Shown: positions 3,170 to 16,090 of the stretch, piece after piece
Layout: the number at the start of each line of letters is the position of its first letter
Numbering within the stretch: position 1 is the first letter of the stretch
Source: Myxococcales bacterium
GTDB taxonomy: Bacteria > Myxococcota > Myxococcia > Myxococcales > Anaeromyxobacteraceae
Assembly (NCBI GenBank): GCA_021779335.1
Contig: JAJYAW010000001.1
Span: 1 to 37,762, forward strand
Direction: 5' to 3'
Length of the DNA: 37,762 nt
Translations under genes and position numbers: made by a program
Notes under the pieces: model-generated
The model's database searches: none
Told to the model about the DNA's origin: nothing
Seen by the model: the letters and a program-made list of their open reading frames with translations, nothing else

Positions 3170-3176
3170 GGTCTCG

Positions 3177-3566
3177 ATGAGCAAGGTGCTGCTGGTCGTC
3201 GTGCTGCTGGTGGTCGGCCTGATGGTCGGGATGCAGCTGCTGGTCCGCTCCCGGGCCCGCGCCATGCGCGGCCAGCAGGTGCCGGAGCTCCCCGGGCCGC
3301 TCGGCCGGCAGCTCGCCGGCGCGCCCCGCTCGCTCCTCTACTTCTTCAGCCCCTCGTGCGGCGCGTGCAAGCCGCTCACCCCGCGCTTCACGGCGCTGCA
3401 GCGCGGCAACCCCGCCGTGCACCTGGTCGACGTGTCCCAGGACCTGGGCGTGGCCCGCAGCTTCAAGGTCATGGGGACGCCCAGCGTCGTGGAGATCGCC
3501 GACGGCCGGATCGTGGGGTACCACGTGGGCGGGGTGCCGCCCGACGTGCTGGCGCGCTTCGCCTGA
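3177..3566 (+). CDS. Membrane-anchored thioredoxin-fold thiol:disulfide oxidoreductase (CGAC active site)
   Basis: 129 aa. N-terminal signal-anchor MSKVLLVVVLLVVGLMVGMQLLV, active site FFSPSCGACKPL, and cis-Pro region GTPSVV. Starts 7 nt after the GST stop. Confidence 0.85.
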   Translation: MSKVLLVVVLLVVGLMVGMQLLVRSRARAMRGQQVPELPGPLGRQLAGAPRSLLYFFSPSCGACKPLTPRFTALQRGNPAVHLVDVSQDLGVARSFKVMGTPSVVEIADGRIVGYHVGGVPPDVLARFA

Positions 3567-3567
3567 G

Positions 3568-3588
3568 CCGCGGCGGGCCGCGCCGCGG
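3568..3588. terminator. GC-rich hairpin between convergent thioredoxin and LysR genes (possible bidirectional terminator)
   Basis: CCGCGGCG (3568-3575) pairs with CGCCGCGG (3581-3588) around a 5-nt loop. There is no U-tract. Confidence 0.3.
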
Positions 3589-3603
3589 GGCCCGGGCCGT
3601 CCC

Positions 3604-4533
3604 TCAGCCGCACGCCCGCTCTGCGAAGCCGGGCTCCGACGGCCGGAGCCGCGCCAGCACCTTCGCCACGAAGGCGGCGGCGGGGCTCCGCTCGACGAGC
3701 CCGGCGCCGACGACCAGCGTCCGCCGACGGGCGTGCGTGAACCCCGGGACGCGGAGCTCCACCAGCCGCCCCGCGGCGACGTGCTCCCGCACCAGATCGG
3801 TCGAGATGAAGGCGACGCCGTCGCCGCGCAGCACCGCCTCCACGATGATGTGGAGGTCGTCGAACACCACCACCCGGTTGAAGTCGTCGATCTGTCGCCT
3901 CACCTCGACGAGATTCTTCTGCAAGAGGGTGCGCGAGCAGCAGCCTTCGCTGCGGGTGTAGAGCGTGCCGGAGACGAGCCGGTCGAGCGCGACCTCGGGC
4001 CCGCCCAGGGCCAGCGCGGGTGAGGCGGCGAAGACCATCTCGTCCCCGAGGAGGCTGACCGTCTCGAACTCCGAGAGGTCGAAGCACTCGCAGTGCTCCA
4101 CCACCGCCAGCTCATAGCGACCACCCTTGAGCCCGGCCACGACCTCCTCCGGCGTCTCCAGCACGAACTTCAAGTCGCCGATCTCGGCCTGGGAGAGCAT
4201 GAACTCGCGCAGGATCTCGGGCAGGTGCACCACGCCGAAGGTCGGCGTGCAGACGAAGGAGAGGCCCCGCTTCCGGTCCATGAGGTGGAGCTTCGCCAGC
4301 AAATCCCGCTCGATCTCGAGGATCTTGTGGGCCTGCTCCAGCACCACGCTCCCGGCTGGGGTGAGCGTGAGGAGCGGGCCGGATCGATCGAGCAGCGGCT
4401 GGCCGTACTGATCCTCCATGAACTTGATGCGACGAGATGCCGCAGAGGCCGTGACCGCCAGCGCCTCGGATGCCTTGGTGATGTTGCCGGACCTCGCCAC
4501 CTCCACCAGCGTCTTCAGGTAAATGGACTCCAT
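3604..4533 (-). CDS. LysR family transcriptional regulator
   Basis: 309 aa. N-terminal wHTH (LKTLVEVARSGNITKASEALAVTASAASRRIKFMEDQYGQPLLDR) plus a LysR substrate-binding domain. Divergent from the rhodanese/cytochrome operon. Confidence 0.92.
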   Translation of the reverse strand: MESIYLKTLVEVARSGNITKASEALAVTASAASRRIKFMEDQYGQPLLDRSGPLLTLTPAGSVVLEQAHKILEIERDLLAKLHLMDRKRGLSFVCTPTFGVVHLPEILREFMLSQAEIGDLKFVLETPEEVVAGLKGGRYELAVVEHCECFDLSEFETVSLLGDEMVFAASPALALGGPEVALDRLVSGTLYTRSEGCCSRTLLQKNLVEVRRQIDDFNRVVVFDDLHIIVEAVLRGDGVAFISTDLVREHVAAGRLVELRVPGFTHARRRTLVVGAGLVERSPAAAFVAKVLARLRPSEPGFAERACG

Positions 4534-4553
4534 CCGGTCGGCCCCTGGCGCGC

Positions 4554-4568
4554 ATGCGGTGGCCGCAT
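4554..4568. promoter_or_regulatory. Perfect palindrome ATGCGG-TGG-CCGCAT containing a T-N11-A LysR-type box
   Basis: Read directly. It lies 21 bp upstream of the LysR start (4533) and 120 bp upstream of the operon start (4688). T4555 and A4567 frame 11 nt. Confidence 0.5.
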
Positions 4569-4687
4569 GACGGCGTGCAAATCACTCACTTCGTGTCTAC
4601 CCCGTCGGACTCTACCCTTCAACCACCTGAGTTGCGAACGGCGCCGCGCCGGTCTGGCGAGGCGCCACTCACGAGGAGGAGGGGTTC

Positions 4688-6583
4688 ATGTCTGGATTTG
4701 ATGTGCAGCCGCGGCGCGCCCTGGCGCTCGGCGTCCCTGTGGCGATGCTGCTCACCGGCCTCGTCTCGGCGGGCTGCTCCAAGAGCTACGAAGACCCGAG
4801 CGCCGAGCTCTATGCCGGCGACGCGACCGCGATCACGCTGGTCGAGCCGGCGGCGGTGCGGGCCTGGGTCGACGCGGGCGGCAAGACGGAGGCGGGCCAG
4901 CGGGTCGTCATCCTCGACTGCGTCCCCAACCCGGCCGGCGTCCTGCCCTACTCGGACACGGAGAGCTGGTTCGCCGGCGACAAGATCAAGATCCTGGCCA
5001 ACATGGACAAGATGTACGGGGGGAAGTTGAGTCCCCAGTACAAGGGCTTCTCCGGGATGGGGGACGCCATGTACGGCCACATCCCGGGCGCCATCCCGAA
5101 CGTCTCGCACGAGGGCTACGAGGTCACGCCCCGGAGCGAGGGGCCGATCCTGGCCGACCACGAGGTGGGCACGGGCGCGCTCATCGACCAGATGCTCCAG
5201 AAGCAGGGCATCACCAGGAGCGACGTCCTCGTCTTCACGACCTCCCGCTACGACTACCCGGGCTTCTGCCCCGCGCGCCTGTTCTGGACCATGCGCTACT
5301 GGGGCTTCCCTCGCGGCCAGCTCAAGGTCCTGAACGGCGGCAACAAGGCCTACGCCATGGCGGGCAACCCGCTGCAGAAGGGCATCACGCTGCCGCCGAT
5401 GAGCCGGTCCACCATGAGCGTCACCGACCTGCCCAAGAGGTTCCTCTCGGAGCGGATCGGCCTGGGGGAGCTCATCGCCCTCGTGGACGGCGGCCGCACC
5501 ACGCTGCCCGCCGGTGACGCCAACAAGGTGGTGGTCCTCGACACCCGCCAGCCGCCGGCCGCCTACTACTTCAAGGACGCCGACGCCGACCAGGTCCCCG
5601 ACATCTTCAAGGCCGCCGGCTACGCCTACGACCCCGCCACCAAGCTCTTCAACGGTGGGACGCTGACCCTCAGCGAGGTCCTCTTCGGCGCCGCCAACCT
5701 GGGCATCCCGTTCGACCCGGTCAACAATCCACCCATCAACCTGACCGCGACCCCGGCCAGCACCTACCTGGCCATGCACGCGCTGGCGGGCGCGCCGCTG
5801 GCCATCCCTCTCGGCGCCAAGGAGGCGGCCTTCGAGGGCATCGTCCGCGGCGCCAAGGTGACCAAGACGCCTGCCTGGAACATCACGGTGCCGGCGCTGT
5901 CGCGCGCCGACGGCGGCTACAAGACGAGGGAGGAGCTGCTCCCCATCTTCGCGGCCGCCGGCATCGACGGCACGAAGCCCGTGGTCGTCTACTGCAACTC
6001 GGGCGCCCTGGCGGCGATCTACTACTACGTCCTCAAGGAGATTTGCGGGATCCCGGACGTGCGCCTGTACGACGGCTCATGGCAGGAGTGGGGCAACCTG
6101 GCTGCCTACCAGCCTGTCGACACGACGTACGTGATGAACGACGACTACACGGTCTACCCGAAGTACCCCGCGTCTGCGCCGTCGGTGGTGTTCTTCGCCG
6201 GCCAGAACCACTACCTGACCTGGGACCCGGTGGGGCTGGCGTTCAAGGACAGCCAGACCGGCGCCCTGGTCGGGTCGGACAAGGTCGCAGCCGGTGGCTC
6301 GCTGGCCGGTAACGGCACCTGGGACACCGTCACCCGCTCGGAGTTCGTCATGTTCCGCCCCATGGCGTCGCTGCAGGGGGCCGCGCTGGACCTGAACGGC
6401 GCCGCCAACTACCGCAACAAGACCTACAACAGCGCGGTCGACTGGCCGGCCATCCAGACCACGCCCGGCTACCAGGGCCCCGCCACCAAGATCCACGACG
6501 AGGACGCCGCCTACGGCGGCTCCACCGCGAGCGCTCCAGCCGGAGCCCCCACGCCCTTCGTGCCGAAGGGCGGCGGCTGCTGA
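4688..6583 (+). CDS. Multi-domain rhodanese (sulfurtransferase) lipoprotein, ExtH-like, with C-terminal ...PKGGGC tail
   Basis: 631 aa. Signal peptide with lipobox-compatible LVSAGC. Rhodanese active-site loop VVVYCNSGALAA plus an upstream inactive-type rhodanese region. Low-complexity Ala/Pro/Gly linker ends in a terminal Cys (GGC TGC TGA at 6575-6583). Strong SD GAGGAGGAGGGG precedes the ATG. Confidence 0.88.
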   Translation: MSGFDVQPRRALALGVPVAMLLTGLVSAGCSKSYEDPSAELYAGDATAITLVEPAAVRAWVDAGGKTEAGQRVVILDCVPNPAGVLPYSDTESWFAGDKIKILANMDKMYGGKLSPQYKGFSGMGDAMYGHIPGAIPNVSHEGYEVTPRSEGPILADHEVGTGALIDQMLQKQGITRSDVLVFTTSRYDYPGFCPARLFWTMRYWGFPRGQLKVLNGGNKAYAMAGNPLQKGITLPPMSRSTMSVTDLPKRFLSERIGLGELIALVDGGRTTLPAGDANKVVVLDTRQPPAAYYFKDADADQVPDIFKAAGYAYDPATKLFNGGTLTLSEVLFGAANLGIPFDPVNNPPINLTATPASTYLAMHALAGAPLAIPLGAKEAAFEGIVRGAKVTKTPAWNITVPALSRADGGYKTREELLPIFAAAGIDGTKPVVVYCNSGALAAIYYYVLKEICGIPDVRLYDGSWQEWGNLAAYQPVDTTYVMNDDYTVYPKYPASAPSVVFFAGQNHYLTWDPVGLAFKDSQTGALVGSDKVAAGGSLAGNGTWDTVTRSEFVMFRPMASLQGAALDLNGAANYRNKTYNSAVDWPAIQTTPGYQGPATKIHDEDAAYGGSTASAPAGAPTPFVPKGGGC

Positions 6584-6647
6584 TCAGCGACATCGGCCAC
6601 GCGGCCGCCGCCAAGGGCCGGCCGCTCCCACGACCAAGGAGCTCCAC

Positions 6648-7823
6648 ATGACAGTCTTCAAGGCAGCCGTCGCCGCCCTCACGGGCATGTTCCTCTCCGC
6701 GGGGCCGGCCGTCGCCGGACCCGCCCTCGAGTTCGGGCCGGAGCAGCAGGGCACGCTCCAGCTCGACTACAAGGGCCAGTTCCAGCTGCGCCTGCGCAAC
6801 ACCGGCGCCGGGCCCGATGGGGCGGGCAGCGCCACGGAGTTCGGCTTCCGCCGCGACCGCGTCGACCTCATCGGAGCCTGGGGCGAGCACCTCGGGCTCT
6901 ACGTCCAGACCGAATTCCTCGAGGACAACAACGTCTCGCCGCTGTCCGTCGGCGACGGGGAGGCCTCCTCGTTCCAGCTGATCGACGCGGCCATGCGCTT
7001 CAAGCTGAACGACCAGCTCAACGTCTGGGTCGGCAAGTTCAAGTACGGCTTCACGCGCGAGAACCTGGAGGCGTGCGAGGCCCCGCTGACCCTGGATCGC
7101 TCGCTCTTCATCCGGGCGCCCTACGTCGCGACCCGCGACCAGGGTGTGTCGGTGTGGGGCAACGTCCTCGGCGGCCTCATCCAGTACCGGCTGGATGCCA
7201 TGAACGGGCGCAACGACGCGACGTCCTCTCCGCGGTCGCAGCTCCGCTACTCGGCGCGCGCCCACCTGTCGCTCCTCGAGCCGGAGAGCGGGTACGGCTA
7301 CAAGGGGACCTACCTCGGCCAGAAGCGGGTGCTGACGCTCGGCGCAGCCTATCAGTACGAGGCCGGGATCGCCTTCGCGGACACGGTCGGCAAGACCGGC
7401 AGCGTAGACTACGACGCGTGGACCGTGGATGCCTTCCTGGAGTACCCGGTCGCTGGCGTCGGCACGTTCACGGCCTCGGGCGCCTACGTGAGGTACGAGC
7501 TCGGCAAGGCGTACCAGGGGGCTGCGCCGGACGCCGGCACCATCGGCCTCAACGGCGAGAAGAACGGCTGGTACGCCAAGGCGGCCTACCTGCTGCCCGG
7601 CGTGCCGGTGCAGGTCTTCGGCCGTGCCGAGCAGTGGTCCTTCGCCCAGCTCGACGGCGTCTTCGACCAGCAGGTCGACTGGTACGGCGGCGGCTTCAAC
7701 TACTACGCCCGGGGGCAGGACCTGAAGCTCACCGCCGAGTATTCGGTGGCGTCCTTCGGCAAGGCGGGCGCCTCCACCAAGGATGTCGACACCCTCATCG
7801 TCCAGCTGCAGCTGGTCTTCTGA
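6648..7823 (+). CDS. Outer-membrane beta-barrel porin (phosphate-selective porin O/P-like; ExtI-like position)
   Basis: 391 aa. Signal peptide MTVFKAAVAALTGMFLSAGPAVA. Amphipathic beta-strand pattern throughout, with C-terminal ...LIVQLQLVF ending in an aromatic residue. AAGGAG SD is present. Confidence 0.85.
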   Translation: MTVFKAAVAALTGMFLSAGPAVAGPALEFGPEQQGTLQLDYKGQFQLRLRNTGAGPDGAGSATEFGFRRDRVDLIGAWGEHLGLYVQTEFLEDNNVSPLSVGDGEASSFQLIDAAMRFKLNDQLNVWVGKFKYGFTRENLEACEAPLTLDRSLFIRAPYVATRDQGVSVWGNVLGGLIQYRLDAMNGRNDATSSPRSQLRYSARAHLSLLEPESGYGYKGTYLGQKRVLTLGAAYQYEAGIAFADTVGKTGSVDYDAWTVDAFLEYPVAGVGTFTASGAYVRYELGKAYQGAAPDAGTIGLNGEKNGWYAKAAYLLPGVPVQVFGRAEQWSFAQLDGVFDQQVDWYGGGFNYYARGQDLKLTAEYSVASFGKAGASTKDVDTLIVQLQLVF

Positions 7824-7849
7824 GCCACGAACCCAAGGGAGAACATGCC

Positions 7850-8080
7850 ATGACGCTCAAGCTACTCGCCGCCGCCACGCTGTTGTCACTCTCGAGCCTG
7901 GCCTCCGCGCAGGACGCCGCGGTCGAGGGGAAGGTCACCGCGGTCGAAGGCAACAAGGTCACCGTGGAGGTGGCGCCCGGAGACGCAGCCAAGCTCAAGA
8001 TCGGGGACGAGATCACCGTCAAGGCGAAGGCGCCGAAGCAGGCGCCGAAGAAGAACAGCGCCGCGTTGCAGGGCTGCTGA
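7850..8080 (+). CDS. Small secreted periplasmic protein (76 aa) ending ...ALQGC; ExtJ-like position
   Basis: ATG at 7850 is preceded by AAGGGAGAA. Signal peptide MTLKLLAAATLLSLSSLASA, then a short beta-rich core (EGKVTAVEGNKVTVEVAPGD..IGDEITVKA), a Lys-rich tail and a terminal Gly-Cys. In the track it is hidden inside the 7073..8080 ORF. G/C-rich third positions. Confidence 0.7.
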   Translation: MTLKLLAAATLLSLSSLASAQDAAVEGKVTAVEGNKVTVEVAPGDAAKLKIGDEITVKAKAPKQAPKKNSAALQGC

Positions 8081-8140
8081 CCCAGGCGCTGCGGCAGGGC
8101 GGCCTGCGCCGCCCTGCCGCTCCCCTCCTCTGGATCCCCC

Positions 8141-9118
8141 ATGACTGACCCACGAGCTCCCCTGCCACTCGCCCTCCTCTCGCTCGCCGTGGCCTGTGTC
8201 GCGACCACGGCGCTGGCCGCGCCGGCCGGCATCGGCCGGGACGGGATGATCGCCTCCCGAAAGGGCAAGGCCCGCAGCATCGCAGAGCTGGCCGCGATGT
8301 ACGACTCCAGCTCGTGCGTGGAGTGCCACCAGGAGGCCCACGACCAGTGGGCGGCCTCGCCTCACGCCAGGCCTATCTTCGGCACCGGGCGAACCGCGGC
8401 GACCTTCCGAACGGCCGTGCTGAACGGCCTCATGTCGTGGCCGTACTCGGGGGTGAAGAGTCCCAAGGACGTCAAGGTCGAGCACCTCATGGGGTGCGCC
8501 AAGTGCCACCTGCCACAGCTTGCGGACGCCACCGACGCCGTGGCCGCCGAGGTGGCCCAGAGCATCTTCAGCTGGGCGGATGCCGTGCAGGGCGGCGACG
8601 AGAGGAGGCGGGCCACCGAGGAGAAGAAGCTGCTCAGCCTTGGAATCACCTGCCTGGTCTGCCACAACCGGAACGCCATCGTGCACAAGTGGACCGACGG
8701 CTACCCGCAGGCCGGCGTCGTGTACGGCTCCAAGGCAGGCGCCCACGATGCGCCGGGCTTCCCGAAGATGGCGGTGAGCCCGATCATGCAGGAGTCCATC
8801 CTCTGCGGCCAGTGCCACGGCCTCGGACCCAACCTCGAGCTGGACAACCCGACGCAGTGCGGCACGGGGTACGGCAGCTATCTGTGGGCCTACCGCGCCG
8901 AAGGCGGCCGTGAGACCTGCCAGGATTGCCACATGCGGAAGAGCGGCCTGGGGCACAAGATCCTCAGCTACAGCGACCCGGCCATGATCAAGGCGGCGGT
9001 CGACTTCGAGGCCGACGCGCAGGGGATGTACTGGCGAGACGGCACGCGCGTCAGCGCACGCGCCGTGGTGCGGGTGGCGATGACCAACCGCTCCGGCCAC
9101 AGCATCCCCGATGGTTGA
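8141..9118 (+). CDS. Periplasmic pentaheme c-type cytochrome (ExtK-like), as conventionally terminated at TGA 9116-9118
   Basis: Signal peptide plus five CxxCH motifs: CVECH, CAKCH, CLVCH, CGQCH, CQDCH. The ORF stops inside a conserved-looking block ...NRSGHSIPDG*. See the next two features for the read-through hypothesis. Confidence 0.9.
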   Translation: MTDPRAPLPLALLSLAVACVATTALAAPAGIGRDGMIASRKGKARSIAELAAMYDSSSCVECHQEAHDQWAASPHARPIFGTGRTAATFRTAVLNGLMSWPYSGVKSPKDVKVEHLMGCAKCHLPQLADATDAVAAEVAQSIFSWADAVQGGDERRRATEEKKLLSLGITCLVCHNRNAIVHKWTDGYPQAGVVYGSKAGAHDAPGFPKMAVSPIMQESILCGQCHGLGPNLELDNPTQCGTGYGSYLWAYRAEGGRETCQDCHMRKSGLGHKILSYSDPAMIKAAVDFEADAQGMYWRDGTRVSARAVVRVAMTNRSGHSIPDG

Positions 9119-9169
9119 CCCACCCCCAACCGACTGGTCCTGTCGGTAAGCGCAAAGACGAAGGGTGGG
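9116..9169 (+). other. In-frame UGA followed by a SECIS-like stem-loop (candidate selenocysteine recoding signal)
   Basis: Upper stem ACCGAC (9129-9134) pairs with GTCGGT (9142-9147). The 7-nt apical loop TGGTCCT (9135-9141) begins 16 nt after the UGA. Lower stem CCCACCC (9119-9125) pairs with GGGTGGG (9163-9169) and starts right after the UGA. Confidence 0.45.
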
Positions 9170-9484
9170 AAGGAGCTGTACAACACCGAGAAGATCTACA
9201 TGCCGGTGCCGCAGCAGTTCGCGCGCGGGGATCGAATGGGGAGGGGCCCCTACGAGAAGAGCGGTATCATCGAGGACAACGGACTGCCGCCGAACCGGCG
9301 CGTCGAGGAGCGGTTCGAGATCCCGTTCCCCATGGAGGAGGTGGAGGGGACGCGCCGCCCGACCGAGTACGACATGGACGTCGACGTGAAGCTCTGGTAC
9401 CTGCCCTTCGGGACGATGGAGTCCTCCCCGTTCCTCTGGCGTGAGTTCAAGAGGACGGTCAGCGTGAGCCGGGGCGGAAAGTAG
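9119..9484 (+). CDS. Heme-less C-terminal continuation of the pentaheme cytochrome, same frame as 8141..9118 (full product 8141..9484 if the TGA is decoded)
   Basis: Same frame as the upstream ORF. G/C-rich third positions start immediately after the TGA (PTPNRLVLSVSAKTKGGKELYNTEKIYMPV...). No SD or plausible start occurs before the track's ATG at 9200, and that ATG also lacks an SD. Ends at TAG 9482-9484. Confidence 0.6.
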   Translation, partial: PTPNRLVLSVSAKTKGGKELYNTEKIYMPVPQQFARGDRMGRGPYEKSGIIEDNGLPPNRRVEERFEIPFPMEEVEGTRRPTEYDMDVDVKLWYLPFGTMESSPFLWREFKRTVSVSRGGK

Positions 9485-9593
9485 GGCTGGGCGGGGCAAG
9501 TCCACCGCCTCGGGCTGGATCGGCCGTCGGGCCTGTGGGGCCGCCGGCCGACCGGTCCACCCCCAACGCGGCGGGGATGGGAGGGAGGTCCAC

Positions 9594-11441
9594 ATGTGGT
9601 GTGCTGGACTCCCGCCCGCCCGCCCTGGCCCGGGGCTGCTGCTCGCCGCCGCGTTGCTGGCGGGCTGCGGAACCGCGCCGGCCGGGCTGACGTGCCGCGG
9701 CTGCCACGCCGGGCTGGAGCCGGCCTCCGCCACGCACGGCGACTGTCTCTCCTGCCATGGTGGCGACGGCCGGGCTCGCCAGAAGGACCGGTCGCACCGC
9801 GGCATGTTCGGCGGCAGGAACCCCTCGGCGCCGGCCGCCTGGGAGAAGACCTGCGGCGCCTGCCACCCGCTCCAGCTGCAGCGGCTGCGCGGCGCGCTCA
9901 TGACCACCAACGCCGGCATGATCCGGAACATCCAGGCGACCTGGGACGGCGAGGACGGACGGGCCTACGCGGCCCAGCCGGCCGCGACCTTCGATGCCAG
10001 CGGGAGGCCGTGGGCGCTGGCGGGCGCCACCGAGCTGCCGGGCCTATCCGGTGAGCTGTACCGGAAGTACTGTTCGCTCTGCCATGTCGGGCTGTCCTCC
10101 GACGAGGTGTACGCGGGGAGCCACGCCGCCGGGTGCGCGGCCTGTCACTTTCCGTTCAACGACACCGCCACCTATCAGGGCGGCGACGCGGCCGTCCGAG
10201 GCCGCTGGCCGCTCTCGGCCTCGCACGCCATGGCCCGCCTCCCCGACAACCGGGCGTGTCTGGCGTGTCACAACCGCAGCGGCCGGATCGCACTCTCTTA
10301 CCAGGGGCGCTACGACGGCAACAACGGGCTGGTGCCCACCCGCGACGGCGAGCCAGGGCCCAGGATCATCTCGGGCGCCCGCGACGCGACCGCCATCGCG
10401 CCGGACATCCACTTCGAGAAGGGGATGGACTGCATCGACTGCCACACCTCCCGTGACGTCATGGGCGACGGCTACGCATACCAGAACCTCGATCGGCAGG
10501 TGGAGGTGGCGTGCGAGGACTGCCACGGGAGCCCCACGCGGCGGCCGAGGACGGCGGCCATCACTCGCGAGAACGACGAGGCGGTGCGCGAGTCGGCCAG
10601 CTACCCCACGCCGGCGAGATCAGGCCTGGAGATGGTCCTCACCTCCAAGGGGCGGAAGTACTCGAACGCTTGGATGGAGTCCGGGACGGTAGTCGTCCAG
10701 TCGAAGCGCACCGGCCAGCGGCACGAGAGCAAGGTCATCACCGGGACCCCGGAGCACGCCGTCGCCGGCCACGAGCGGATGGAGTGCCACGCCTGCCACT
10801 CGCGCACCGTGGTCCAGTGTTATGGCTGCCACACGACCTACGACCGCTCCAGGGTGAGCCGCGACTTCATCCGGGGCGCCGACACGCCGGGCGAGTTCAG
10901 CGAGACCGAGGACTACCGGACCCTTTACCCATTCCCCCTGGCGCTCAACCAGCGCGGGCGCATCTCGGCCGTGACCCCCGGCTGCCAGACCTTCCTCACC
11001 GAGCTCGGCGCCGACGGGAGGCCGGTGCGAGAGGAGGAAGTCGCCACCTTCAAGGGCAAGCGCCAGCTTCGCTTCGCGCCCTTCTTCTCGCACAACACCG
11101 GGCGCAGGGCGATCGGCTGCAGCGAGTGTCACGCCAACCCGGCCTTTCTGGGCTTCGGGCAGCACGTGGTCGAGGGAGACAGCCTCGCGCCTACCCTGCT
11201 GTGCGAGAAGTCGGCCGGGAAGCCGCTGGACGGCTTCCTCACACTGGACCACGGCCGGGTCCGCGCTTTCTCGGCCATCACGCGGCAAGGCTCTCGGCCG
11301 CTGGAGGCCGGCGAGATCAAGCGGGTCTGGGCGGTCAACCAGTGCCTGGGCTGCCACGACGACGCCAAGGACCCCATCTTCAGGAAGAAGCTCGACTACG
11401 GGCGCCTGGCGCGTTGCCTGGGAGCGACCCGTGCGCCCTGA
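9594..11441 (+). CDS. Dodecaheme c-type cytochrome lipoprotein
   Basis: 615 aa with canonical lipobox LLAGC. Twelve CxxCH motifs: CRGCH, CLSCH, CGACH, CSLCH, CAACH, CLACH, CIDCH, CEDCH, CHACH, CYGCH, CSECH, CLGCH. SD GGGAGGGAGG is present. Confidence 0.92.
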   Translation: MWCAGLPPARPGPGLLLAAALLAGCGTAPAGLTCRGCHAGLEPASATHGDCLSCHGGDGRARQKDRSHRGMFGGRNPSAPAAWEKTCGACHPLQLQRLRGALMTTNAGMIRNIQATWDGEDGRAYAAQPAATFDASGRPWALAGATELPGLSGELYRKYCSLCHVGLSSDEVYAGSHAAGCAACHFPFNDTATYQGGDAAVRGRWPLSASHAMARLPDNRACLACHNRSGRIALSYQGRYDGNNGLVPTRDGEPGPRIISGARDATAIAPDIHFEKGMDCIDCHTSRDVMGDGYAYQNLDRQVEVACEDCHGSPTRRPRTAAITRENDEAVRESASYPTPARSGLEMVLTSKGRKYSNAWMESGTVVVQSKRTGQRHESKVITGTPEHAVAGHERMECHACHSRTVVQCYGCHTTYDRSRVSRDFIRGADTPGEFSETEDYRTLYPFPLALNQRGRISAVTPGCQTFLTELGADGRPVREEEVATFKGKRQLRFAPFFSHNTGRRAIGCSECHANPAFLGFGQHVVEGDSLAPTLLCEKSAGKPLDGFLTLDHGRVRAFSAITRQGSRPLEAGEIKRVWAVNQCLGCHDDAKDPIFRKKLDYGRLARCLGATRAP

Positions 11442-12711
11442 CTCGGCCGGCGCGGGCGGCTCACGAAGCGGCGGGCGGCTCCTCGCCTGGCTCGTGTCGA
11501 TGGGCCTCGCCCTGCTCCCGCCGCGGGCGGACGCGGCCGGGGCGTGCACCACCTGCCACGCGAGGCAGGTGCGAGGTGCACACGCCACCATCGACTGCGG
11601 GGCGTGCCACCGCGGCCCCCGTGATCTCGGTCAGGTCTCGGCGGCCCCCGCCGCCCGGGGCTGCACCGGGTGCCACCCCGGCGCCGCCGCCATCTTCCTG
11701 GGACCCATGGCGCACCGCACGCCCGAGCGCGCCTTCGCCGACGCCGCCTTCGCGCACCGTGACAGTCGCTTCTTCGAGAAGAGCTGCACTGGCTGTCACG
11801 TGAAGGACTGCTTCGACTGCCACGGCCCGGACGGCCACGCCATCGAACGCCCGGGGAGCGAGGGCTGCCACACCTGCCACCGCGGTTACTTCGTCGGCGC
11901 CGACTACCTTGGCCGAGCCCCCCGAGAAGACAACCTGCGCTACCAGCGCGGGCCGTCCAGGGACGGAGAGCGCTACTTGAAGATGCGCCCGGACGTCCAC
12001 GCCGAGGCCGGCCTGGCGTGCGGCGCGTGCCACTCCATGGCCAGCCTGGCGGCTGGACGGCGCACCGCCAAGACCTGCACCGACTGCCATCGGCCGAGCC
12101 CAGCGGTGCTGGAGCACCGCATCGGCGGCCACCTCGAGGCGCTGGAGTGCTGGGCGTGCCACTCGGCCTGGGCTGCCCAGGAGTATGGGACCTTCTTCGT
12201 CCGCGTTGGAGGCAGCCCGGTAGCCGAACACTTCACCGTGAAGCGGGAGCCCGGCGCCGAGTACCTCCGCAGCGCCTACCTGCGGCGGCAGGACGCGCCG
12301 CCGCTCGGCCGCGACGTGGCCGGCAAGGTGAGCCCCGTCCGGCCACAGTTCATCGCCTACACGAGCGACCTTCGCAGGTCCGGCGGCGAGGAGAACGTGC
12401 TCCTCGTCGCGCAGTGGAAGGCCTTCTTCCCCCACACCGTCCGACGTGGCACGGTGCCGTGCGAAGGTTGTCACGAGGCCCCGCGCCGCTTCCTGGTCGA
12501 GCCCGAGGGGGCTCGCATCTACCTGCCCGCAGAGGACGGCCTGGGGCTGCCGTCCTTCTGGAGCCAGCGGGGGCAGACGCTGATCAATGGGCGCTTCCTC
12601 GCGCCGGAGGAGGTGGCGCGCCTCGGAGCGAAGAGCCCGGCCTACCGCAGGGGTACCATCGAGAAATGGCAGAAGCTCGTCCGGTCCGTCGAAGACTCCT
12701 CCAGGCGCTGA
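11431..12711 (+). CDS. Decaheme c-type cytochrome (secreted)
   Basis: 426 aa. GTG start with GGAG 6 nt upstream, overlapping the previous gene by 11 nt. Ten CxxCH motifs: CTTCH, CGACH, CTGCH x2, CFDCH, CHTCH, CGACH, CTDCH, CWACH, CEGCH. Confidence 0.9.
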   Translation: MRPDSAGAGGSRSGGRLLAWLVSMGLALLPPRADAAGACTTCHARQVRGAHATIDCGACHRGPRDLGQVSAAPAARGCTGCHPGAAAIFLGPMAHRTPERAFADAAFAHRDSRFFEKSCTGCHVKDCFDCHGPDGHAIERPGSEGCHTCHRGYFVGADYLGRAPREDNLRYQRGPSRDGERYLKMRPDVHAEAGLACGACHSMASLAAGRRTAKTCTDCHRPSPAVLEHRIGGHLEALECWACHSAWAAQEYGTFFVRVGGSPVAEHFTVKREPGAEYLRSAYLRRQDAPPLGRDVAGKVSPVRPQFIAYTSDLRRSGGEENVLLVAQWKAFFPHTVRRGTVPCEGCHEAPRRFLVEPEGARIYLPAEDGLGLPSFWSQRGQTLINGRFLAPEEVARLGAKSPAYRRGTIEKWQKLVRSVEDSSRR

Positions 12712-13055
12712 CCCTGGCCGCCGTGGCGGTGCCGCTCTGGCGCTACCTGGCGCCGGGACGGTCCCGGGCCCGCAGGGTCCTGCGCGTGCCCCGGGCGGAG
12801 ATCCCTCCGGAGGGGGCGCTCGTCTTCCGCGAGGCGCGCGTGGCGGTCATGCGCCGCGACGGCGCTGTCTTCGCCCTGGACCTCGCCTGCACGCACCTCG
12901 GGTGCACCGTCAACGTGACCTCGCGGCAGCTCGTCTGCCCGTGCCACGGGAGCACCTTCGCCCTCGACGGCACGCCGCTGACCGGCCCGGCCACGCGGCC
13001 GCTGGGGCGGCTCGAGGTGAGGGACGCGGACGCACACGTGGAGGTCCTGCTGTGA
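12666..13055 (+). CDS. Rieske [2Fe-2S] protein with twin-arginine signal
   Basis: 129 aa taken from the ATG at 12666 inside track ORF 12018..13055. N-terminus MAEARPVRRRLLQALTLAAVAV is Tat-like. Cluster-binding boxes CTHLGC and CPCHGS are present. Start position is less certain than the call. Confidence 0.85.
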   Translation: MAEARPVRRRLLQALTLAAVAVPLWRYLAPGRSRARRVLRVPRAEIPPEGALVFREARVAVMRRDGAVFALDLACTHLGCTVNVTSRQLVCPCHGSTFALDGTPLTGPATRPLGRLEVRDADAHVEVLL

Positions 13056-13696
13056 GTCAGCCAAACGACTCCGGCATGGTCCGCGGCTTCCTCGGCCACC
13101 TCTTCCCGCGCGTGGTCCTCGCCAGCAACCTCCGGCTCACCTACACGTTCTGCCTGGGCGGCCTGGCGTTCACGGCCTTCGTCCTGCTGCTCGGCTCGGG
13201 CATGCTGCTCCTCTTCGACTATCGCCCCTCGCCCGAGGGCGCCTACGCCTCGATCCTCTTCCTGGAGGGTAGCGTGCCGGGAGGGGCGTACCTGCGCCGG
13301 CTCCACCGGCTGTCCTCGCACGCCCTGCTGGCCTTCACCTTCCTGCACACGCTGCGGGTGGTGTTCACCGGCGCATTCCGCCCCCCCCGGGAGCTCAACT
13401 GGGTGATCGGGTTCGGTCTGCTCTGCATGGGCGTCTTCGGGGCGTACACTGGATACCTCCTCCCGATGGACCAGCTCGCCCTCTGGGCCACCCGGACCGG
13501 TACGGAGTTGCTGGCCACGGTGCCGGGCGGTGATCTGCTCCGGCAGGTGCTGGTCCCGGACGAGGTCGGCGGTCCGAGATCGCTGCAGCGGTTCTACGCC
13601 CTCCACATCGCGGTCGCCCCGCTCTCCATCCTGGTGCTGTCCATGCTCCACTTCTTCCGGATCCGCCGCGACAAGGGGGCGCTGCCGTACCTATGA
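13052..13696 (+). CDS. Cytochrome b6-type cytochrome b, N-terminal four-helix subunit
   Basis: GTG at 13052 overlaps the Rieske stop (GTGA); an alternative ATG lies at 13076. Aligns block by block with my memory of cytochrome b6: TFCLGG, DYRP, RRLHRLSSHALLAFTFLHTLRVVFTGAFRPPRELNW, GYLLPMDQLALWA, RFYALHIAVAPLSILVLSMLHFFRIRRDKG. His pairs are spaced 14 and 15 residues apart. Confidence 0.9.
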   Translation: MSQPNDSGMVRGFLGHLFPRVVLASNLRLTYTFCLGGLAFTAFVLLLGSGMLLLFDYRPSPEGAYASILFLEGSVPGGAYLRRLHRLSSHALLAFTFLHTLRVVFTGAFRPPRELNWVIGFGLLCMGVFGAYTGYLLPMDQLALWATRTGTELLATVPGGDLLRQVLVPDEVGGPRSLQRFYALHIAVAPLSILVLSMLHFFRIRRDKGALPYL

Positions 13697-14133
13697 GCAC
13701 GCCGGACCGTGGCGGCGACGACCTGGCGGGGCGGGTGCCGAGTGCGCCACGCTTCTTCGGCCTCATCAAGCGGACCTTCGCGGCGGGGGCCGCCACCTTG
13801 CTGCTGCTGGCCTTCGTGGTGCCGGCGCCGCTGCAGGGCCCGGCCGATCCGGGCCGGGTCCCCAACCCGGTGACGGCGGCCTGGTTCCTCCTCTGGACCC
13901 AGGAGCTCATGAGCTACTCGAAGGAGCTCATCTACCTCCTGCTGCTGCTCGCCGCCGCCCTCCTCTTCCTGCCCTGGCTGCCCGGGACCCGGCCGGCCGA
14001 CCGCGCCAGGTGGTTCCCCCGCGGTCAGCGTCCGGCCACCCTGCTGACGCTCGCCGCCTTCCTCGGCGTCGTCGGGCTCACCATCGTCGCGGGGTTCTTC
14101 CGGGGGCAGAATTGGGCCTTCTTCGCTCCCTGA
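13693..14133 (+). CDS. Cytochrome b C-terminal subunit (subunit IV/PetD-like)
   Basis: 146 aa. ATGA overlap with the cytochrome b stop. Three hydrophobic helices. NPVTAAWFLLW lies where PetD has the PEWY region. Confidence 0.8.
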   Translation: MSTPDRGGDDLAGRVPSAPRFFGLIKRTFAAGAATLLLLAFVVPAPLQGPADPGRVPNPVTAAWFLLWTQELMSYSKELIYLLLLLAAALLFLPWLPGTRPADRARWFPRGQRPATLLTLAAFLGVVGLTIVAGFFRGQNWAFFAP

Positions 14134-14909
14134 CCGCGCTCCTGGCGCTGCTGTCTCCGCTCCGGGCCCTGCCCGGCGGCGCCTGCATGGAGTGCCACCC
14201 CGTTCACCACGAGGCGTCCGCAGCCTGCACCGGATGCCACCGCGGCGATCCACGCACCCGGCGGCTGGAGCTCGCGCATCGCGACCTGATCGCTGGGCGC
14301 TTCGCGCACTTCGCGTTGCCGGGCAGCCTGGTGGTGGCCCGGGGCCAGCAGGTCCTCGAGCGGGCGGGCTGCCGCCGGTGTCACGTGACCGGCGGGCGCG
14401 GGAATGGCTTGGCGACCGACCTCGACCAGCTGCTTCAAGGCGCCACGCCGGCCGAGACGATGGGCGCCCTCCAGCAGCCTGCGCTCTTCATGCCCCGGTT
14501 CGCCCTGACGGAGCCGGCCACCGTCGAGCTGGTGAACGCGCTCTACGCGGGGTCGGCCGGGGCTCCGAGGAGGACGGGAGAGACGCCCGTGGTGGTCCAC
14601 TTCGAGCAGGCCGCCCCGCCCGAGAGCGCCTTCGAGACGCACTGCGGCGGCTGCCACCGGATGCTCTCCAGGATGCAGGGCGGCCTGGGCCGCGGCGCCA
14701 CCGGCCCCAATCTCACCGGGCTCCTGGGCGAGTTCTACCCGGGCACCTACAAGGACAGGGAGCGCTGGACGCCGGCCAGCTTGAGGAGGTGGGTGATGAA
14801 CCCCCGAGACACCCGGCCCCTGGCGACGATGCCTCCCCGGTCGCTGCCGGACCAGGAGCTGGAGCGGATCCTGGCGGCGTTCGAGGCCGGAGGAGGCACG
14901 GCCAGGTGA
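14112..14909 (+). CDS. Tetraheme c-type cytochrome of the Rieske/cyt b module
   Basis: C-terminal part of track ORF 13530..14909. Four CxxCH motifs: CMECH, CTGCH, CRRCH, CGGCH. The last two sit in class-I-like domains with distal Met-Pro. A TTG start at 14112 (GGGGG 6 nt upstream) gives signal peptide MGLLRSLTALLALLSPLRA. The start is uncertain. Confidence 0.75.
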   Translation: MGLLRSLTALLALLSPLRALPGGACMECHPVHHEASAACTGCHRGDPRTRRLELAHRDLIAGRFAHFALPGSLVVARGQQVLERAGCRRCHVTGGRGNGLATDLDQLLQGATPAETMGALQQPALFMPRFALTEPATVELVNALYAGSAGAPRRTGETPVVVHFEQAAPPESAFETHCGGCHRMLSRMQGGLGRGATGPNLTGLLGEFYPGTYKDRERWTPASLRRWVMNPRDTRPLATMPPRSLPDQELERILAAFEAGGGTAR

Positions 14910-14932
14910 CCCGCCGAGGTCGGTCCTCGCGG

Positions 14933-15442
14933 CTACGGTGCGGTCGGGAAGGACCCCGTCGTCCCCTCGGCGATCGCCCTGAGCGCCGCCGCCGTGGCGG
15001 GCACGGTGCGCCACCCCATCATCCCCCACTTCATGCTGAAGGCTGGGTAGTCGAGGATTCGGAGCAAGCTCAGTGCCTTGGTCGATTCGTGCCCGGAGTT
15101 GCAGTAGAGAATGATCTCCCTTTCCCTGGAGAGCTTCGCCAGGCTCCGCGGTTCGGCGATCTCCCGTACCGGGATGCTGATGGCCCCCGGGAGGTGCCAG
15201 AGTTCGAACTCCTTCTCGGAGCGGACGTCGACCAGGACGAAGTCACTCTTGCCGGACTGGAGGCGGCCCCGGACCTCGGTCGGTGCCAGCAGGAAGTTGT
15301 TCTCCGGGGTGCTGTCCAGGAAGTGGGCCGCGGCCCGCTGGATGACCTCGGCCTCCCCCGGCGAGAGGGCGCTGGCCTGGCCAGCGGGGGCCAGGAGGGC
15401 CAGGAAGGTCAGCGTGAGGACCGCGGCTCTGCCGTGGGGCAT
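14933..15442 (-). CDS. Secreted single-domain rhodanese (sulfurtransferase)
   Basis: 169 aa from the ATG at 15442, with AAGGAG SD; the track ORF extends further to 15589. Signal peptide MPHGRAAVLTLTFLALLAPAGQASA. Active-site loop ILYCNSGHES. Confidence 0.85.
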   Translation of the reverse strand: MPHGRAAVLTLTFLALLAPAGQASALSPGEAEVIQRAAAHFLDSTPENNFLLAPTEVRGRLQSGKSDFVLVDVRSEKEFELWHLPGAISIPVREIAEPRSLAKLSREREIILYCNSGHESTKALSLLRILDYPAFSMKWGMMGWRTVPATAAALRAIAEGTTGSFPTAP

Positions 15443-15515
15443 GTGGGCTGCTCCTTGGGATGCTGGGGAGGGCGATTCGCGCCTGCGCCACCAGCCTCCG
15501 CGATGCGCCCCCGGA

Positions 15516-15549
15516 AGCCATTGACCGCTCGCAACGGGGAGCCGATTGC
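15516..15549 (+). repeat. Copy A of a ~34-nt intergenic element (AGCC ATTGACCGCTCGCAACG GGGAGCCG ATTGC)
   Basis: Read directly and aligned by eye to five other copies. The ATTGA core begins 77 nt upstream of the rhodanese start (15442, minus strand). Confidence 0.65.
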
Positions 15550-15598
15550 GTCGGACCACCGCGCGACCGAGCCGCCGACGGAGCAGCACCTGGCGGGA

Positions 15599-15618
15599 CC
15601 GAAGACCTGGATCTTCGG
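15599..15618 (-). terminator. Hairpin 20 nt downstream of arsC (possible terminator)
   Basis: CCGAAGA (15599-15605) pairs with TCTTCGG (15612-15618) around a 6-nt loop. No U-tract. Confidence 0.35.
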
Positions 15619-15637
15619 CATGGTGCCCTCCGTGGCC

Positions 15638-16090
15638 TCAGCGCCCGAAGACGACCGCCAGCCGCCGCCTGAGCTCGTCGCGCACCTCCCGGAACGACTG
15701 GAGCTGCGCCACCTCGTCGGCGCCGCGGCCGGCCGGATCCGGCAGCCCCCAGTGGAGGCGCCGGGCCCGGCCCAGGAACACCGGGCACTCCTCCTCGGCG
15801 CACAGGGTGATGACCACGTCCACGCCCTCGGGTGAAATGGTCTCCACGCCCTTGGAGGAGTGCCCGCGGAGGTCGATGCCGAGCTCGTCGAGCGCCTGGA
15901 TGGCAAGCGGGCTGACCCTGGAGGGCCTCGAGCCCGCCGAGGAGACGGTCACGCCGGCGGGCGCCAGCGCCCGGGCGAGCCCCTCGGCCATCTGGCTGCG
16001 CGCCGAGTTGGCGACGCAGAGGAAGAGGAGGTGCCTGGGCGCCAGCCGCCTGAGCTCCTCGGCCTCGGACCGCCAGGGCTCCCCGCTCAC
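15638..16090 (-). CDS. arsC: Arsenate reductase, LMW-PTPase (thioredoxin-coupled) family
   Basis: 150 aa with P-loop [16 protein letters not shown] (CX5R-S). GTG start overlaps the acr3 stop (GTGA). Sits in an ars operon context. Confidence 0.88.

Follow-up and report, generated by a model that had tools for sequence, protein, structure and literature searches.

The closest described relative of the locus considered here is found in Geobacter sulfurreducens, namely the cluster extHIJKLMNOPQS (GSU2940-GSU2930) published by Jahan et al. (2018, PMC5877670). This cluster already holds, beyond ExtHIJKL, cytochromes with 12 (ExtM), 10 (ExtN) and four hemes (ExtS), a Rieske protein (ExtO), a cytochrome b (ExtP) and ExtQ, and its distal half is known in the electron-transfer literature as Cbc6 or CbcMNOPQR (PMC13591261). 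The ExtKL product of Geobacter, MccSep, is a pentaheme selenoenzyme forming a soluble periplasmic homotetramer of 200 kDa, and its crystal structure has been solved (PDB 9wt8; Mihara et al., 2026, PMC13510729). Western blotting, measurement of its selenium content and mass spectrometry have proven that its UGA codon is read through. The protein fractionates to the periplasm, and its selenocysteine (Sec) and Cys-ligated heme 2, which lie in a buried site, cleave polysulfide, yielding sulfide, and act with lower efficiency on selenite, which they also reduce (PMC13510729). Since MccSep is periplasmic and itself reduces the substrate, the terminal reductase is located in the periplasm.

In the window, the whole stretch of 37,762 nucleotides of Myxococcales DNA that was analysed, ORF listing and translation place ten genes on the forward strand between 4688 and 14909. 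Gene order (H-I-J-KL-M-N-O-P-Q-S) and protein types are those of the Geobacter cluster, as are the heme numbers (5, 12, 10 and 4), the separation of ExtK from ExtL by a Sec codon, the Rieske protein with a split cytochrome b and a small membrane subunit, the lipoprotein nature of ExtH and the divergent LysR regulator. The window differs in its long ExtH (631 aa as against about 430-480 aa, with three insertions), which is only about 30% identical and falls under the NCBIfam cut-off, in the GC content of the host genome (~72%) and in its other flanking genes. NCBIfam provides gene-named models for the ext operon, under the operon name 'selenite/tellurite reduction', and eight of the ten window proteins score above their cut-offs; ExtI, ExtJ, ExtKL, ExtM, ExtN, ExtQ and ExtS exceed the equivalog cut-offs while ExtH (NF040901; 159 against 200 bits) and ExtP (219 against 290 bits) lie under them. 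An earlier, sequence-only reading of the window had recognised genes 1-4 as homologues of ExtH, ExtI, ExtJ and ExtK and had assigned rhodanese, porin, multiheme cytochrome, Rieske and cytochrome b types to the products; HMM searches (the porin being Porin_O_P) agree on both points. That reading had also regarded a Rieske/cytochrome b complex within an Ext-type unit as new, but the cluster published in 2018 contains both (PMC5877670). As the window cluster matches the published operon gene for gene, the ten-gene arrangement is real and already described, and is not novel.

The genes are tightly packed, with gaps of 64, 26, 60 and 109 nt between the first five and overlaps of 11, 46, 4, 4 and 22 nt at 11431, 12666, 13052, 13693 and 14112. 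These overlaps, the total of 31 CxxCH motifs (5+12+10+4 by count in the translations) and the joining of genes 1-4 to a Rieske/cytochrome b6-type complex and 22 further hemes had all been proposed previously and are upheld. The proposed gaps of 26-109 nt also match in value, but that of 109 nt holds only if gene 4 ends at 9484 and not, as had been supposed, at 9118. No terminator-like sites were found on the forward strand within the operon which, together with the overlaps and close spacing, fits a single transcript. Among the called frames, those of genes 1, 2, 4, 5, 6 and 9 passed the filter; their GC at the third codon position is 0.89-0.96 and supports these genes as truly coding.

The reading frame of gene 4 (ExtKL, 8141-9484) continues past the TGA at 9116-9118 to give a protein of 447 aa with Sec at position 326, so that the earlier end at 9118 had missed 121 C-terminal residues. 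Of 82 loci, 80 have TGA at the corresponding position and two have TGC (Cys); once the window's own copies are removed, 79 of the remaining 80 have TGA and one has TGC. In Geobacter, where readthrough is established, mass spectrometry detected a Sec peptide with exactly the sequence that surrounds the codon in the window, GHSIPDG-U-PTPNR (PMC13510729). Were the TGA a true stop, the locus would encode a truncated pentaheme ExtK of 325 aa and a separate ExtL of 94 aa. This is how the public annotation has it, and no tRNA genes and no selA, selB, selC or selD, which Sec decoding requires, were found within the window. A SECIS-like hairpin (9129-9147; 6-bp stem, loop UGGUCCU) begins 13 nt past the UGA, and about 40 loci show the sequence AACCGACTGGTYCTGTCGG almost unchanged; its folding is statistically unexceptional, at -9.1 kcal/mol (z = -1.2) when the hairpin is folded by itself and -21.5 kcal/mol (z = -2.0) for 55 nt, and taken alone it is weak evidence for Sec decoding. 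A true stop is nevertheless highly improbable, given the conservation of the codon and of the local peptide: the frame stays open from the TGA to the first ATG of the 94-aa ORF, the 27 codons of this interval (9119-9199) are conserved (PTPNRLVLSVSAKTKGG...) and align with the Ig-like domain of MccSep, and third-position GC stays at 0.94 downstream of the TGA. On these comparative grounds the TGA at 9116-9118 encodes selenocysteine.

The full-length product matches NF040886 over its whole length (588 bits) and MccSep (PDB 9wt8/9wt9) over residues 7-447 (E about 1e-209), with 68% identity across 440 aligned residues; in the GTDB species representatives, the nearest ExtKL shares 72% identity with it. 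Every catalytic residue of MccSep is retained in window ExtKL, with R84, H123, C240, U326, K373 and five CxxCH motifs conserved. The two proteins share the five heme sites, the His and Cys that ligate heme 2, the Sec and the active-site Arg and Lys, although a non-conserved Cys240 of the Geobacter protein is Gly here. These matches support the assignment of window ExtKL as a predicted MccSep-type periplasmic terminal polysulfide/selenite reductase, whose activity, oligomeric state and selenium content would be those of the Geobacter enzyme.

Upstream of this enzyme, ExtH (4688-6583) carries a lipobox (SAGC) and a Pfam Rhodanese match at residues 420-469, where tandem thiosulfate sulfurtransferases in the PDB also align (398-473), with a catalytic loop YCNSGALA (Cys436) and a Gly-rich C-terminal tail, GGGC. 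Geobacter-type ExtH aligns with it end to end apart from the three insertions, and the ExtH of another locus (L014; 647 aa as a stop-to-stop ORF) is 61% identical. Rhodaneses of less than 40% identity in place of ExtH have been reported previously (PMC6148476). ExtI (6648-7823; 391 aa, C-terminus QLQLVF) scores 603.5 bits against NF040900 (porin_ExtI; cut-off 150) and matches Pfam Porin_O_P over its full length. ExtJ (7850-8080) is a small exported protein of 76 aa ending in LQGC that scores 65.2 bits against NF040942 (cut-off 52.5). In 49 of 78 loci the ExtKL gene is directly preceded by a small Cys-ending ORF, nearly always for an ExtJ-like protein ending in GC; the Gly-Cys at the extreme C-terminus of both ExtH and ExtJ is invariant.

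Downstream, the lipoprotein cytochrome ExtM (9594-11441; 615 aa, lipobox LAGC, 12 CxxCH) and ExtN (11431-12711; 10 CxxCH) score 1008.8 bits against NF040943 (cut-off 800) and 592.9 bits against NF040967 (cut-off 200) respectively. ExtO (12666-13055), which has an RRR (Tat-like) signal, matches Pfam Rieske (45.5 bits), contains CTHLGC and CPCH motifs and is 43-60% identical to syntenic ExtO proteins, its top PDB matches being b6f-type Rieske proteins. ExtP (13052-13696; 214 aa) matches Pfam Cytochrome_B (109.6 bits) with cytochrome b6 as its top PDB match, falls under its own model NF040969, and is 57-76% identical to syntenic ExtP. ExtQ (13693-14133) scores 179.9 bits against NF040970 (cut-off 150); its earlier assignment as subunit IV is in keeping with its position and three predicted helices, but no Pfam match was found, and in the PDB b6f subunit 4 is matched only once, at E = 0.46. 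ExtS (14112-14909; 4 CxxCH) scores 312.5 bits against NF040971 (cut-off 100; residues 7-255 on profile positions 10-260). Start-codon analysis favours the TTG start at 14112 proposed earlier, as this alone keeps the signal peptide and the first CxxCH, which is lost in the public annotation that begins at Met26.

Rieske/cytochrome b complexes of b6f type with multiheme cytochrome c partners are known from 'Deltaproteobacteria' and anammox bacteria. ExtOPQS resembles them in its split cytochrome b, in heme ligand spacing (H-x13-H and H-x14-H, with His85/99 and His185/200 in ExtP), in a Cys at the heme ci position (Cys34, within TFCLGG), in its Rieske boxes (CTHLGC/CPCHGS) and in the replacement of cytochrome f/c1 by a multiheme protein. 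It differs in its very short Rieske protein (129 aa), which has Phe in place of a Tyr that raises the cluster potential, in the lack of significant similarity between ExtQ and subunit IV, and in the partner acceptor, which would be a chalcogen reductase where theirs is plastocyanin or an oxidase.

About 25 Geobacterales/Desulfuromonadales loci and one locus of Vicinamibacteria have the same order from H to S, and one locus of Gemmatimonadota has that from KL to S. In a distant Thermodesulfobacterium locus lacking ExtM and ExtN, Rieske and cytochrome b genes lie immediately 3' of the MccSep gene, and in a Nitrospirota locus they adjoin porin, ExtJ and MccSep genes; these two arrangements support a link between MccSep and the Rieske/cytochrome b complex. 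In other clades many MccSep genes are solitary and in unrelated neighbourhoods, so the complex is not strictly needed by MccSep. On the opposite strand upstream of the operon lies a LysR-family regulator (3604-4533; Pfam HTH_1 and LysR_substrate), 34-51% identical to its counterparts in about 20 syntenic loci, and a divergent LysR gene upstream of ext clusters has been described in Desulfuromonadales (PMC6148476). The sequence-only reading had seen a chalcogen/metalloid theme in the flanks. The genes are indeed there, YeiH-like, SQR-like flavoprotein, GST and thioredoxin genes preceding the LysR gene upstream and a convergent rhodanese/ArsC/ACR3/ArsR set with TauE lying downstream, but the theme is mostly not conserved: LysR is the only conserved flank gene, ars genes adjoin the cluster in two other loci, and the YeiH, SQR-like, GST and thioredoxin genes were found beside none of the other ext clusters compared. 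The flanks of the operon also encode a CDF transporter and two RND systems for heavy metals.

It had been proposed that the operon forms a chain which leads from quinol to the outer membrane and ends distally in a sulfurtransferase, electrons passing through Rieske/cytochrome b, multiheme cytochromes and ExtI to a surface rhodanese or to Fe(III)/Mn(IV). A G. sulfurreducens strain retaining only extHIJKL reduced Fe(III) oxide to 52% and Mn(IV) oxide to 76% of wild type, as against 0-2% for a strain lacking all five clusters (PMC6148476 Table 1), and ExtHIJKL is still classed among porin-cytochrome complexes (PMC13591261). The window shares with MtrCAB/Pcc conduits an outer-membrane barrel gene adjoining multiheme cytochromes and a lipoprotein, and both ExtH and ExtM are predicted lipoproteins. 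Even so such an outward route is improbable, and the proposal did not survive comparison with MccSep, by homology to which the pentaheme protein beside the barrel is a soluble periplasmic enzyme with its own substrate. MtrB-type sheaths are about twice the size of the 391-aa ExtI, a phosphate-porin-type barrel. No extracellular cytochrome is encoded, and the lipoprotein partner is a rhodanese in which motif and Pfam searches found no redox cofactor motif. Selenite uptake by ExtI has moreover been reported (BBRC 2019, as cited elsewhere), and ExtI is most likely a route of substrate entry rather than of electron exit. The metal-oxide phenotype, which a purely periplasmic sulfur role does not directly explain, could be indirect, by way of sulfide/polysulfide shuttling.

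A main role in selenite/tellurite detoxification or selenium acquisition, and not in energy-conserving sulfur respiration, is somewhat less improbable than that route but still unlikely. The NCBIfam operon name and the ars, TauE, CDF and RND genes of the window point to it, as do the impaired selenite and tellurite reduction of a Geobacter extI mutant (PMC5877670) and the reduction of selenite by MccSep (Vmax 59 umol/min/mg, K0.5 about 1 mM; PMC13510729). Against this, MccSep prefers polysulfide (K0.5 fivefold lower, Vmax/K0.5 sevenfold higher), S0 induces it, and elemental-sulfur respiration depends on it, its deletion abolishing growth on S0 (PMC13510729). An operon of 31 hemes with its own quinol oxidase would also be a large investment for detoxification, and the resistance genes are mostly unconserved beside other ext clusters. 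Rieske centres of menaquinol-oxidising complexes lie near +100 to +160 mV, polysulfide/HS- near -260 mV and the selenite couple at about +200 mV. Forward exit through the Rieske centre to polysulfide would therefore be strongly uphill, while selenite is thermodynamically suited.

Polysulfide respiration in Wolinella succinogenes depends on the Psr molybdoenzyme and the periplasmic rhodanese-like Sud, to which ExtH shows a weak match (1qxn, E = 0.0015). Both systems would combine a periplasmic rhodanese-type sulfur binder with a quinol-dependent polysulfide reductase, although the catalyst in the window is a heme/selenocysteine enzyme instead of a molybdopterin one and the quinol oxidase a Rieske/cytochrome b complex instead of PsrC. 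In the favoured periplasmic scheme, with the divergent LysR regulator controlling the operon, ExtI as an anion-type porin would admit polysulfide or selenite, and ExtH and ExtJ would bind and transfer the chalcogen, possibly via their invariant C-terminal Cys. Electrons from the menaquinol pool would enter at the ExtO-ExtP-ExtQ complex and tetraheme ExtS, which we infer to supply MccSep, and may pass through ExtN and ExtM to its solvent-exposed heme 1. The window cluster is thus very probably, as judged by its sequence, an orthologue of G. sulfurreducens extHIJKLMNOPQS and would serve this myxobacterium as a periplasmic respiratory module reducing chalcogens.

Ten genes lie on the forward strand between positions 4688 and 14909, and ORF listing and translation placed all of them where the sequence-only reading had put them. 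The first encodes a rhodanese lipoprotein of 631 aa (ExtH, 4688-6583) and is followed by genes for a 391-aa barrel with the C-terminus QLQLVF (ExtI, 6648-7823), an exported protein of 76 aa (ExtJ, 7850-8080) and, if translation is carried through a TGA codon, a 447-aa pentaheme cytochrome (ExtKL, or MccSep, 8141-9484). The distal part consists of a 12-heme lipoprotein (ExtM, 9594-11441), a 10-heme cytochrome (ExtN, 11431-12711), a 129-aa Rieske protein (ExtO, 12666-13055), a 214-aa cytochrome b (ExtP, 13052-13696), a 146-aa membrane protein (ExtQ, 13693-14133) and a tetraheme cytochrome (ExtS, 14112-14909). The proposed overlaps of 11, 46, 4, 4 and 22 nt were recovered from the coordinates, translation reproduced the count of 31 CxxCH motifs, and the profile search suggested as a check found the Pfam families Rhodanese (ExtH), Porin_O_P (ExtI), Rieske (ExtO) and Cytochrome_B (ExtP) among the window proteins. 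GC at the third codon position is 0.89-0.96 in genes 1, 2, 4, 5, 6 and 9, these being the called frames retained by the filter, in a genome of approximately 72% GC, which argues that the genes are truly coding. Long ORFs on the opposite strand or off frame (for example 7783-8148 and 12587-13696) were rejected as artefacts of high GC, the off-frame forward ones giving Arg/Pro-rich nonsense. A promoter and terminator scan of 3500-15700 returned no promoter-like sites and two terminator-like sites, fewer than in shuffled sequence, and is uninformative at 72% GC. Neither Rfam matches at gathering thresholds nor rRNA or tRNA genes were detected in the window. A divergent LysR regulator (3604-4533, reverse strand) lies upstream of ExtH and is conserved in that position at other loci, as was reported earlier by Jimenez Otero et al. 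(2018; PMC6148476).

This operon is already known: it has been published, curated as HMMs and in part solved structurally. The Geobacter sulfurreducens cluster extHIJKLMNOPQS (GSU2940-GSU2930) was described as encoding a rhodanese (ExtH), a porin (ExtI), a small protein (ExtJ), a 5-heme putative selenoprotein (ExtKL), 12-heme and 10-heme cytochromes (ExtM and ExtN), a Rieske protein (ExtO), a cytochrome b (ExtP), a membrane protein (ExtQ) and a 4-heme lipoprotein (ExtS) (Jahan et al., 2018; PMC5877670), and its gene order and heme counts are exactly those of the window. The order H-I-J-KL-M-N-O-P-Q-S on one strand agrees both with the published cluster and with about 25 syntenic loci. In the electron-transfer field these genes are treated as two sets, ExtHIJKL and Cbc6/CbcMNOPQR (PMC13591261). 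The sequence-only reading had recognised the first four genes as ExtHIJK-like, which is upheld, but had regarded the presence of a Rieske/cytochrome b complex in the same unit as unprecedented; the G. sulfurreducens cluster itself contains ExtO and ExtP (PMC5877670), and the arrangement is therefore the model organism's own.

The identity of the individual proteins was assessed with the NCBIfam equivalog models named "selenite/tellurite reduction operon", at their curated cut-offs. Those for ExtI (603.5 bits, cut-off 150), ExtJ (65.2, cut-off 52.5), ExtM (1008.8, cut-off 800), ExtN (592.9, cut-off 200), ExtQ (179.9, cut-off 150) and ExtS (312.5, cut-off 100) were all passed, and ExtKL scored 588.4 bits against a "multiheme c-type cytochrome (seleno)protein" model (cut-off 250), over its full length if the TGA is read through. 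ExtH reached 159.2 bits against NF040901, in three stretches and under the cut-off of 200, although its homology extends over the whole length: the lipobox, RYWGFP, YDGSWxQW, NQxE and terminal GC motifs are shared, and three insertions set it apart. ExtP scored 219.4 bits against NF040969, under the cut-off of 290; it passes Pfam Cytochrome_B and is 57-76% identical to the cytochrome b in the same position at syntenic loci. The model NF040968 (FeS_ExtO, "iron-sulfur cluster-binding subunit", 416 positions) matched the 10-heme ExtN at 599 bits and gave no match to the 129-aa Rieske protein. The assignment of its name thus looks wrong, which leaves the real ExtO with no valid specific model; ExtO passes Pfam Rieske, contains the cluster motifs and is 43-60% identical to syntenic ExtO proteins.

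The sequence-only reading had ended the pentaheme gene at 9118. The same frame stays open past the TGA at 9116-9118, up to 9484, and the truncated model coincides with the split in the public annotation of this contig (GCA_027351025.1), where the selenoprotein is cut into products of 325 and 94 aa (11494-12837 in that copy) and ExtS is started at Met26, so that the signal peptide is lost together with the Cys that opens the first CxxCH (17540-18262). The readthrough product aligns over its residues 7-447 with the MccSep structures 9wt8 and 9wt9 (E of approximately 1e-209, 68% identity). It carries CxxCH motifs at residues 59, 119, 171, 222 and 260, and the UGA is codon 326, within a GHxxPDG-U/C-PT site. 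MccSep of Geobacter was shown to be a homotetramer located in the periplasm, each subunit of which holds five hemes and one Sec; H122 and C239 are ligands of heme 2, and U325, R83 and K372 lie at the active site (Mihara et al., 2026; PMC13510729). Aligned to 9wt9, window ExtKL retains the equivalent residues H123, C240, U326, R84 and K373, and a Gly takes the place of the non-conserved Cys240 of Geobacter. Mass spectrometry of the Geobacter protein had detected a Sec peptide (PMC13510729), and the window sequence at this site, GHSIPDG-U-PTPNR, matches it in every residue. Of the 82 loci compared (80 from elsewhere and two copies of the window contig), 80 have TGA at this codon and two have TGC (Cys), the classic pattern of Sec/Cys alternation. 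A hairpin whose loop contains GGU lies 13 nt past the UGA (9129-9147), although its z of -1.2 to -2.0 is unremarkable alone, and a consensus SECIS fold gave no common structure among 13 diverse loci, one of them mis-registered; short SECIS stems appear to differ between clades. That the TGA at 9116 is a true stop is very unlikely. Selenium incorporation and polysulfide reductase activity have been demonstrated for the G. sulfurreducens orthologue only, in a study that covers 637 MccSep homologues (PMC13510729).

ExtO and ExtP have the features expected of a Rieske/cytochrome b complex. ExtO contains the Rieske boxes CTHLGC and CPCH, and ExtP, a split cytochrome b of 214 aa, has the four b-heme histidines (His85/99 and His185/200). 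Its best PDB matches are to cytochrome b6, and Cys34 (TFCLGG) corresponds to Cys35 of that protein, which binds heme ci. ExtQ gave no Pfam match and a best match to b6f subunit 4 of E = 0.46, and it agrees with that subunit only in its position and hydrophobic segments. Box II of ExtO reads CPCHGSTF, in which the Ser is kept and the Tyr position is occupied by Phe; that Tyr raises the potential of Rieske clusters. The exit from a Rieske protein lies at about +100 mV or above and polysulfide at about -260 mV, so that Rieske-fed polysulfide reduction would be energetically hard and a complex of this kind serving sulfur respiration energetically unusual, polysulfide having so low a potential; selenite would suit such an exit. 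The authors of the MccSep work name no electron donor (PMC13510729).

The neighbourhood survey proposed by the sequence-only reading was carried out with the ExtK portion as query against GTDB species representatives and yielded 240 relatives; the best 80 loci were kept and the ten window proteins mapped onto them. Among these 80, a Vicinamibacteria MAG (L038) and about 25 Geobacterales/Desulfuromonadales loci have the full H-I-(J)-KL-M-N-O-P-Q-S order, and a Gemmatimonadota MAG (L046) has the KL-to-S order. Within the same set, Desulfuromonas-type loci have ExtJ and MccSep only, and Desulfobulbales, Thermodesulfovibrionia and Caldimicrobium mostly a lone MccSep amid unrelated genes. In a Thermodesulfobacterium MAG (L066, 290-2597) Rieske and cytochrome b genes stand directly downstream of MccSep and ExtM and ExtN are absent, and in a Nitrospirota MAG (L037, 320-7467) porin, ExtJ-like and MccSep genes adjoin a divergent Rieske/cytochrome b/8-heme set. 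In both, MccSep seems to have become linked to a bc-type complex independently, and the recurrence of the pairing in such distant genomes argues for a functional link. Such an association of MccSep with a Rieske protein and a cytochrome b, now seen in several distant lineages, is not described in the cited ext and MccSep papers. A Geobacter MAG (sp. UBA9964) has two ext copies, one with a long-form ExtH and ExtI, ExtJ and ExtKL but no ExtM-S within 10 kb (L014), the other running on its contig from ExtI through ExtS (L077).

ExtH of the window has a single catalytic rhodanese domain, with Cys436 in YCNSGALA, and belongs to a long-form subtype, being 61% identical to that of L014 and approximately 30% identical to the Geobacter type. 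ExtH is often exchanged for rhodaneses of less than 40% identity (Jimenez Otero et al., 2018; PMC6148476), and the window protein fits this pattern of replacement. A Gly/Ser-rich tail with a terminal Gly-Cys is present in ExtH at all 32 other loci that have it and in the window copies (6569-6583). ExtJ likewise ends in an exposed Gly-Cys, as [L/M][Q/V/E]GC, in nearly every locus where it was found (8066-8080 in the window; loci L001-L044 for both proteins), and its gene immediately precedes that of MccSep even in those Desulfuromonas loci from which ExtH, ExtI and ExtM-S are absent. A search for ExtJ homologues returned two proteins only, because ExtJ is short and of low complexity. A second Sec codon hidden after the GC of either protein was rejected, as in other loci the stop at that point is often TAA or TAG; since the following stops vary (TAA, TAG and TGA), both proteins end in true C-terminal cysteines. 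The cited ext and MccSep papers make no mention of these tails. SoxY carries sulfur on its tail, and by analogy the ExtH and ExtJ tails suggest swinging-arm chalcogen carriers, or a relay of carrier proteins. In a Desulfobulbus MAG (L051, 8645-9532) a 117-aa ORF that likewise ends in LGC and a weakly DsrE-like one (E = 4e-4) come before MccSep, which may be another sulfur-carrier pairing.

In Geobacter, ExtI is an outer-membrane protein required in selenite and tellurite reduction (PMC5877670), and MccSep is a periplasmic terminal reductase that reduces polysulfide (K0.5 0.19 mM) and, with lower efficiency, selenite, and is essential to S0 respiration (PMC13510729). From the anatomy of the proteins, substrate would enter through ExtI, acting as an anion channel of the phosphate-porin type, and would be captured or shuttled by the ExtH lipoprotein and ExtJ. 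The heme histidines, Cys34 and the cytochrome b6 matches suggest that ExtO/P/Q are a b6-type quinol oxidase, in which the tetraheme ExtS could stand in place of cytochrome f/c1, with ExtN and ExtM passing electrons on to MccSep. Neither ExtM nor ExtI gave a match in sequence searches of the PDB. A more specific version, in which the C-terminal cysteines of ExtH and ExtJ deliver polysulfide or selenotrisulfide to the Sec/Cys-heme site of MccSep and a b6-type Rieske/cytochrome b complex reserved for sulfur respiration supplies the electrons, is put forward as a tentative and rather doubtful proposal.

The sequence-only reading had seen instead a quinol-to-outer-membrane chain, and an outward electron conduit gains some support from a Geobacter extHIJKL+ strain that still reduces Fe(III) oxide at 52% and Mn(IV) oxide at 76% of the wild-type level (PMC6148476), a phenotype that could also arise through sulfide shuttling. 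Against it, MccSep is periplasmic and enzymatic, the porin is small and a surface cytochrome is absent. An Mtr/Pcc conduit consists of a large barrel around a periplasmic multiheme cytochrome together with an extracellular multiheme lipoprotein, whereas the window has a 391-aa Porin_O_P barrel, an adjoining lipoprotein that is a rhodanese with no heme motifs, and an adjacent pentaheme protein that in Geobacter is a periplasmic enzyme. A role in detoxification or in acquisition of selenium is possible, but is made less likely by the substrate preference, the induction by S0 and the S0 growth defect. Sulfur and selenite reduction by MccSep in the periplasm is the reading preferred here.

The flanks had been taken as chalcogen-themed. 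The genes concerned are real, but elsewhere, apart from occasional ars genes, they are not kept beside ext clusters. Convergent genes for a periplasmic rhodanese, an LMW-phosphatase-type ArsC, ACR3 and ArsR abut the operon (14933-17577, reverse strand); ACR3 (67% identical) or ArsC also occurs within about 3 kb of the cluster end in locus L007 (at about 18.3-19.9 kb) and approximately 7 kb downstream of ExtKL in L014 (at about 17.4 kb). Further on, 18579-33406 holds a CDF cation-efflux gene between two FmdE-domain proteins and then two heavy-metal-type RND efflux systems with AcrB-family pumps of 1033 and 1204 aa, HlyD_D23 adaptors and OEP proteins. GC is lower in the ext operon (0.68-0.74 over 4001-15000) than in the flanks (0.74-0.79 over 1-4000 and 25000-30000), and the nearest ExtKL among GTDB species representatives, 72% identical, is from Desulfuromonadales; both are compatible with horizontal acquisition of the operon.

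The locus in itself adds little beyond a further uncultured high-GC bacterium that carries a characterised sulfur- and selenite-reducing operon. Its value for annotation lies in the split selenoenzyme (325 + 94 aa) and truncated ExtS of the public gene calls, because of which a functional polysulfide-respiration module would be missed in this MAG. The comparison also sharpens the questions of what donates electrons to MccSep, for which the co-encoded Rieske/cytochrome b complex is a candidate, and of whether ExtH and ExtJ are carriers of sulfur or selenium; it is the Gly-Cys tails of these two proteins and the role of that complex that remain of interest.
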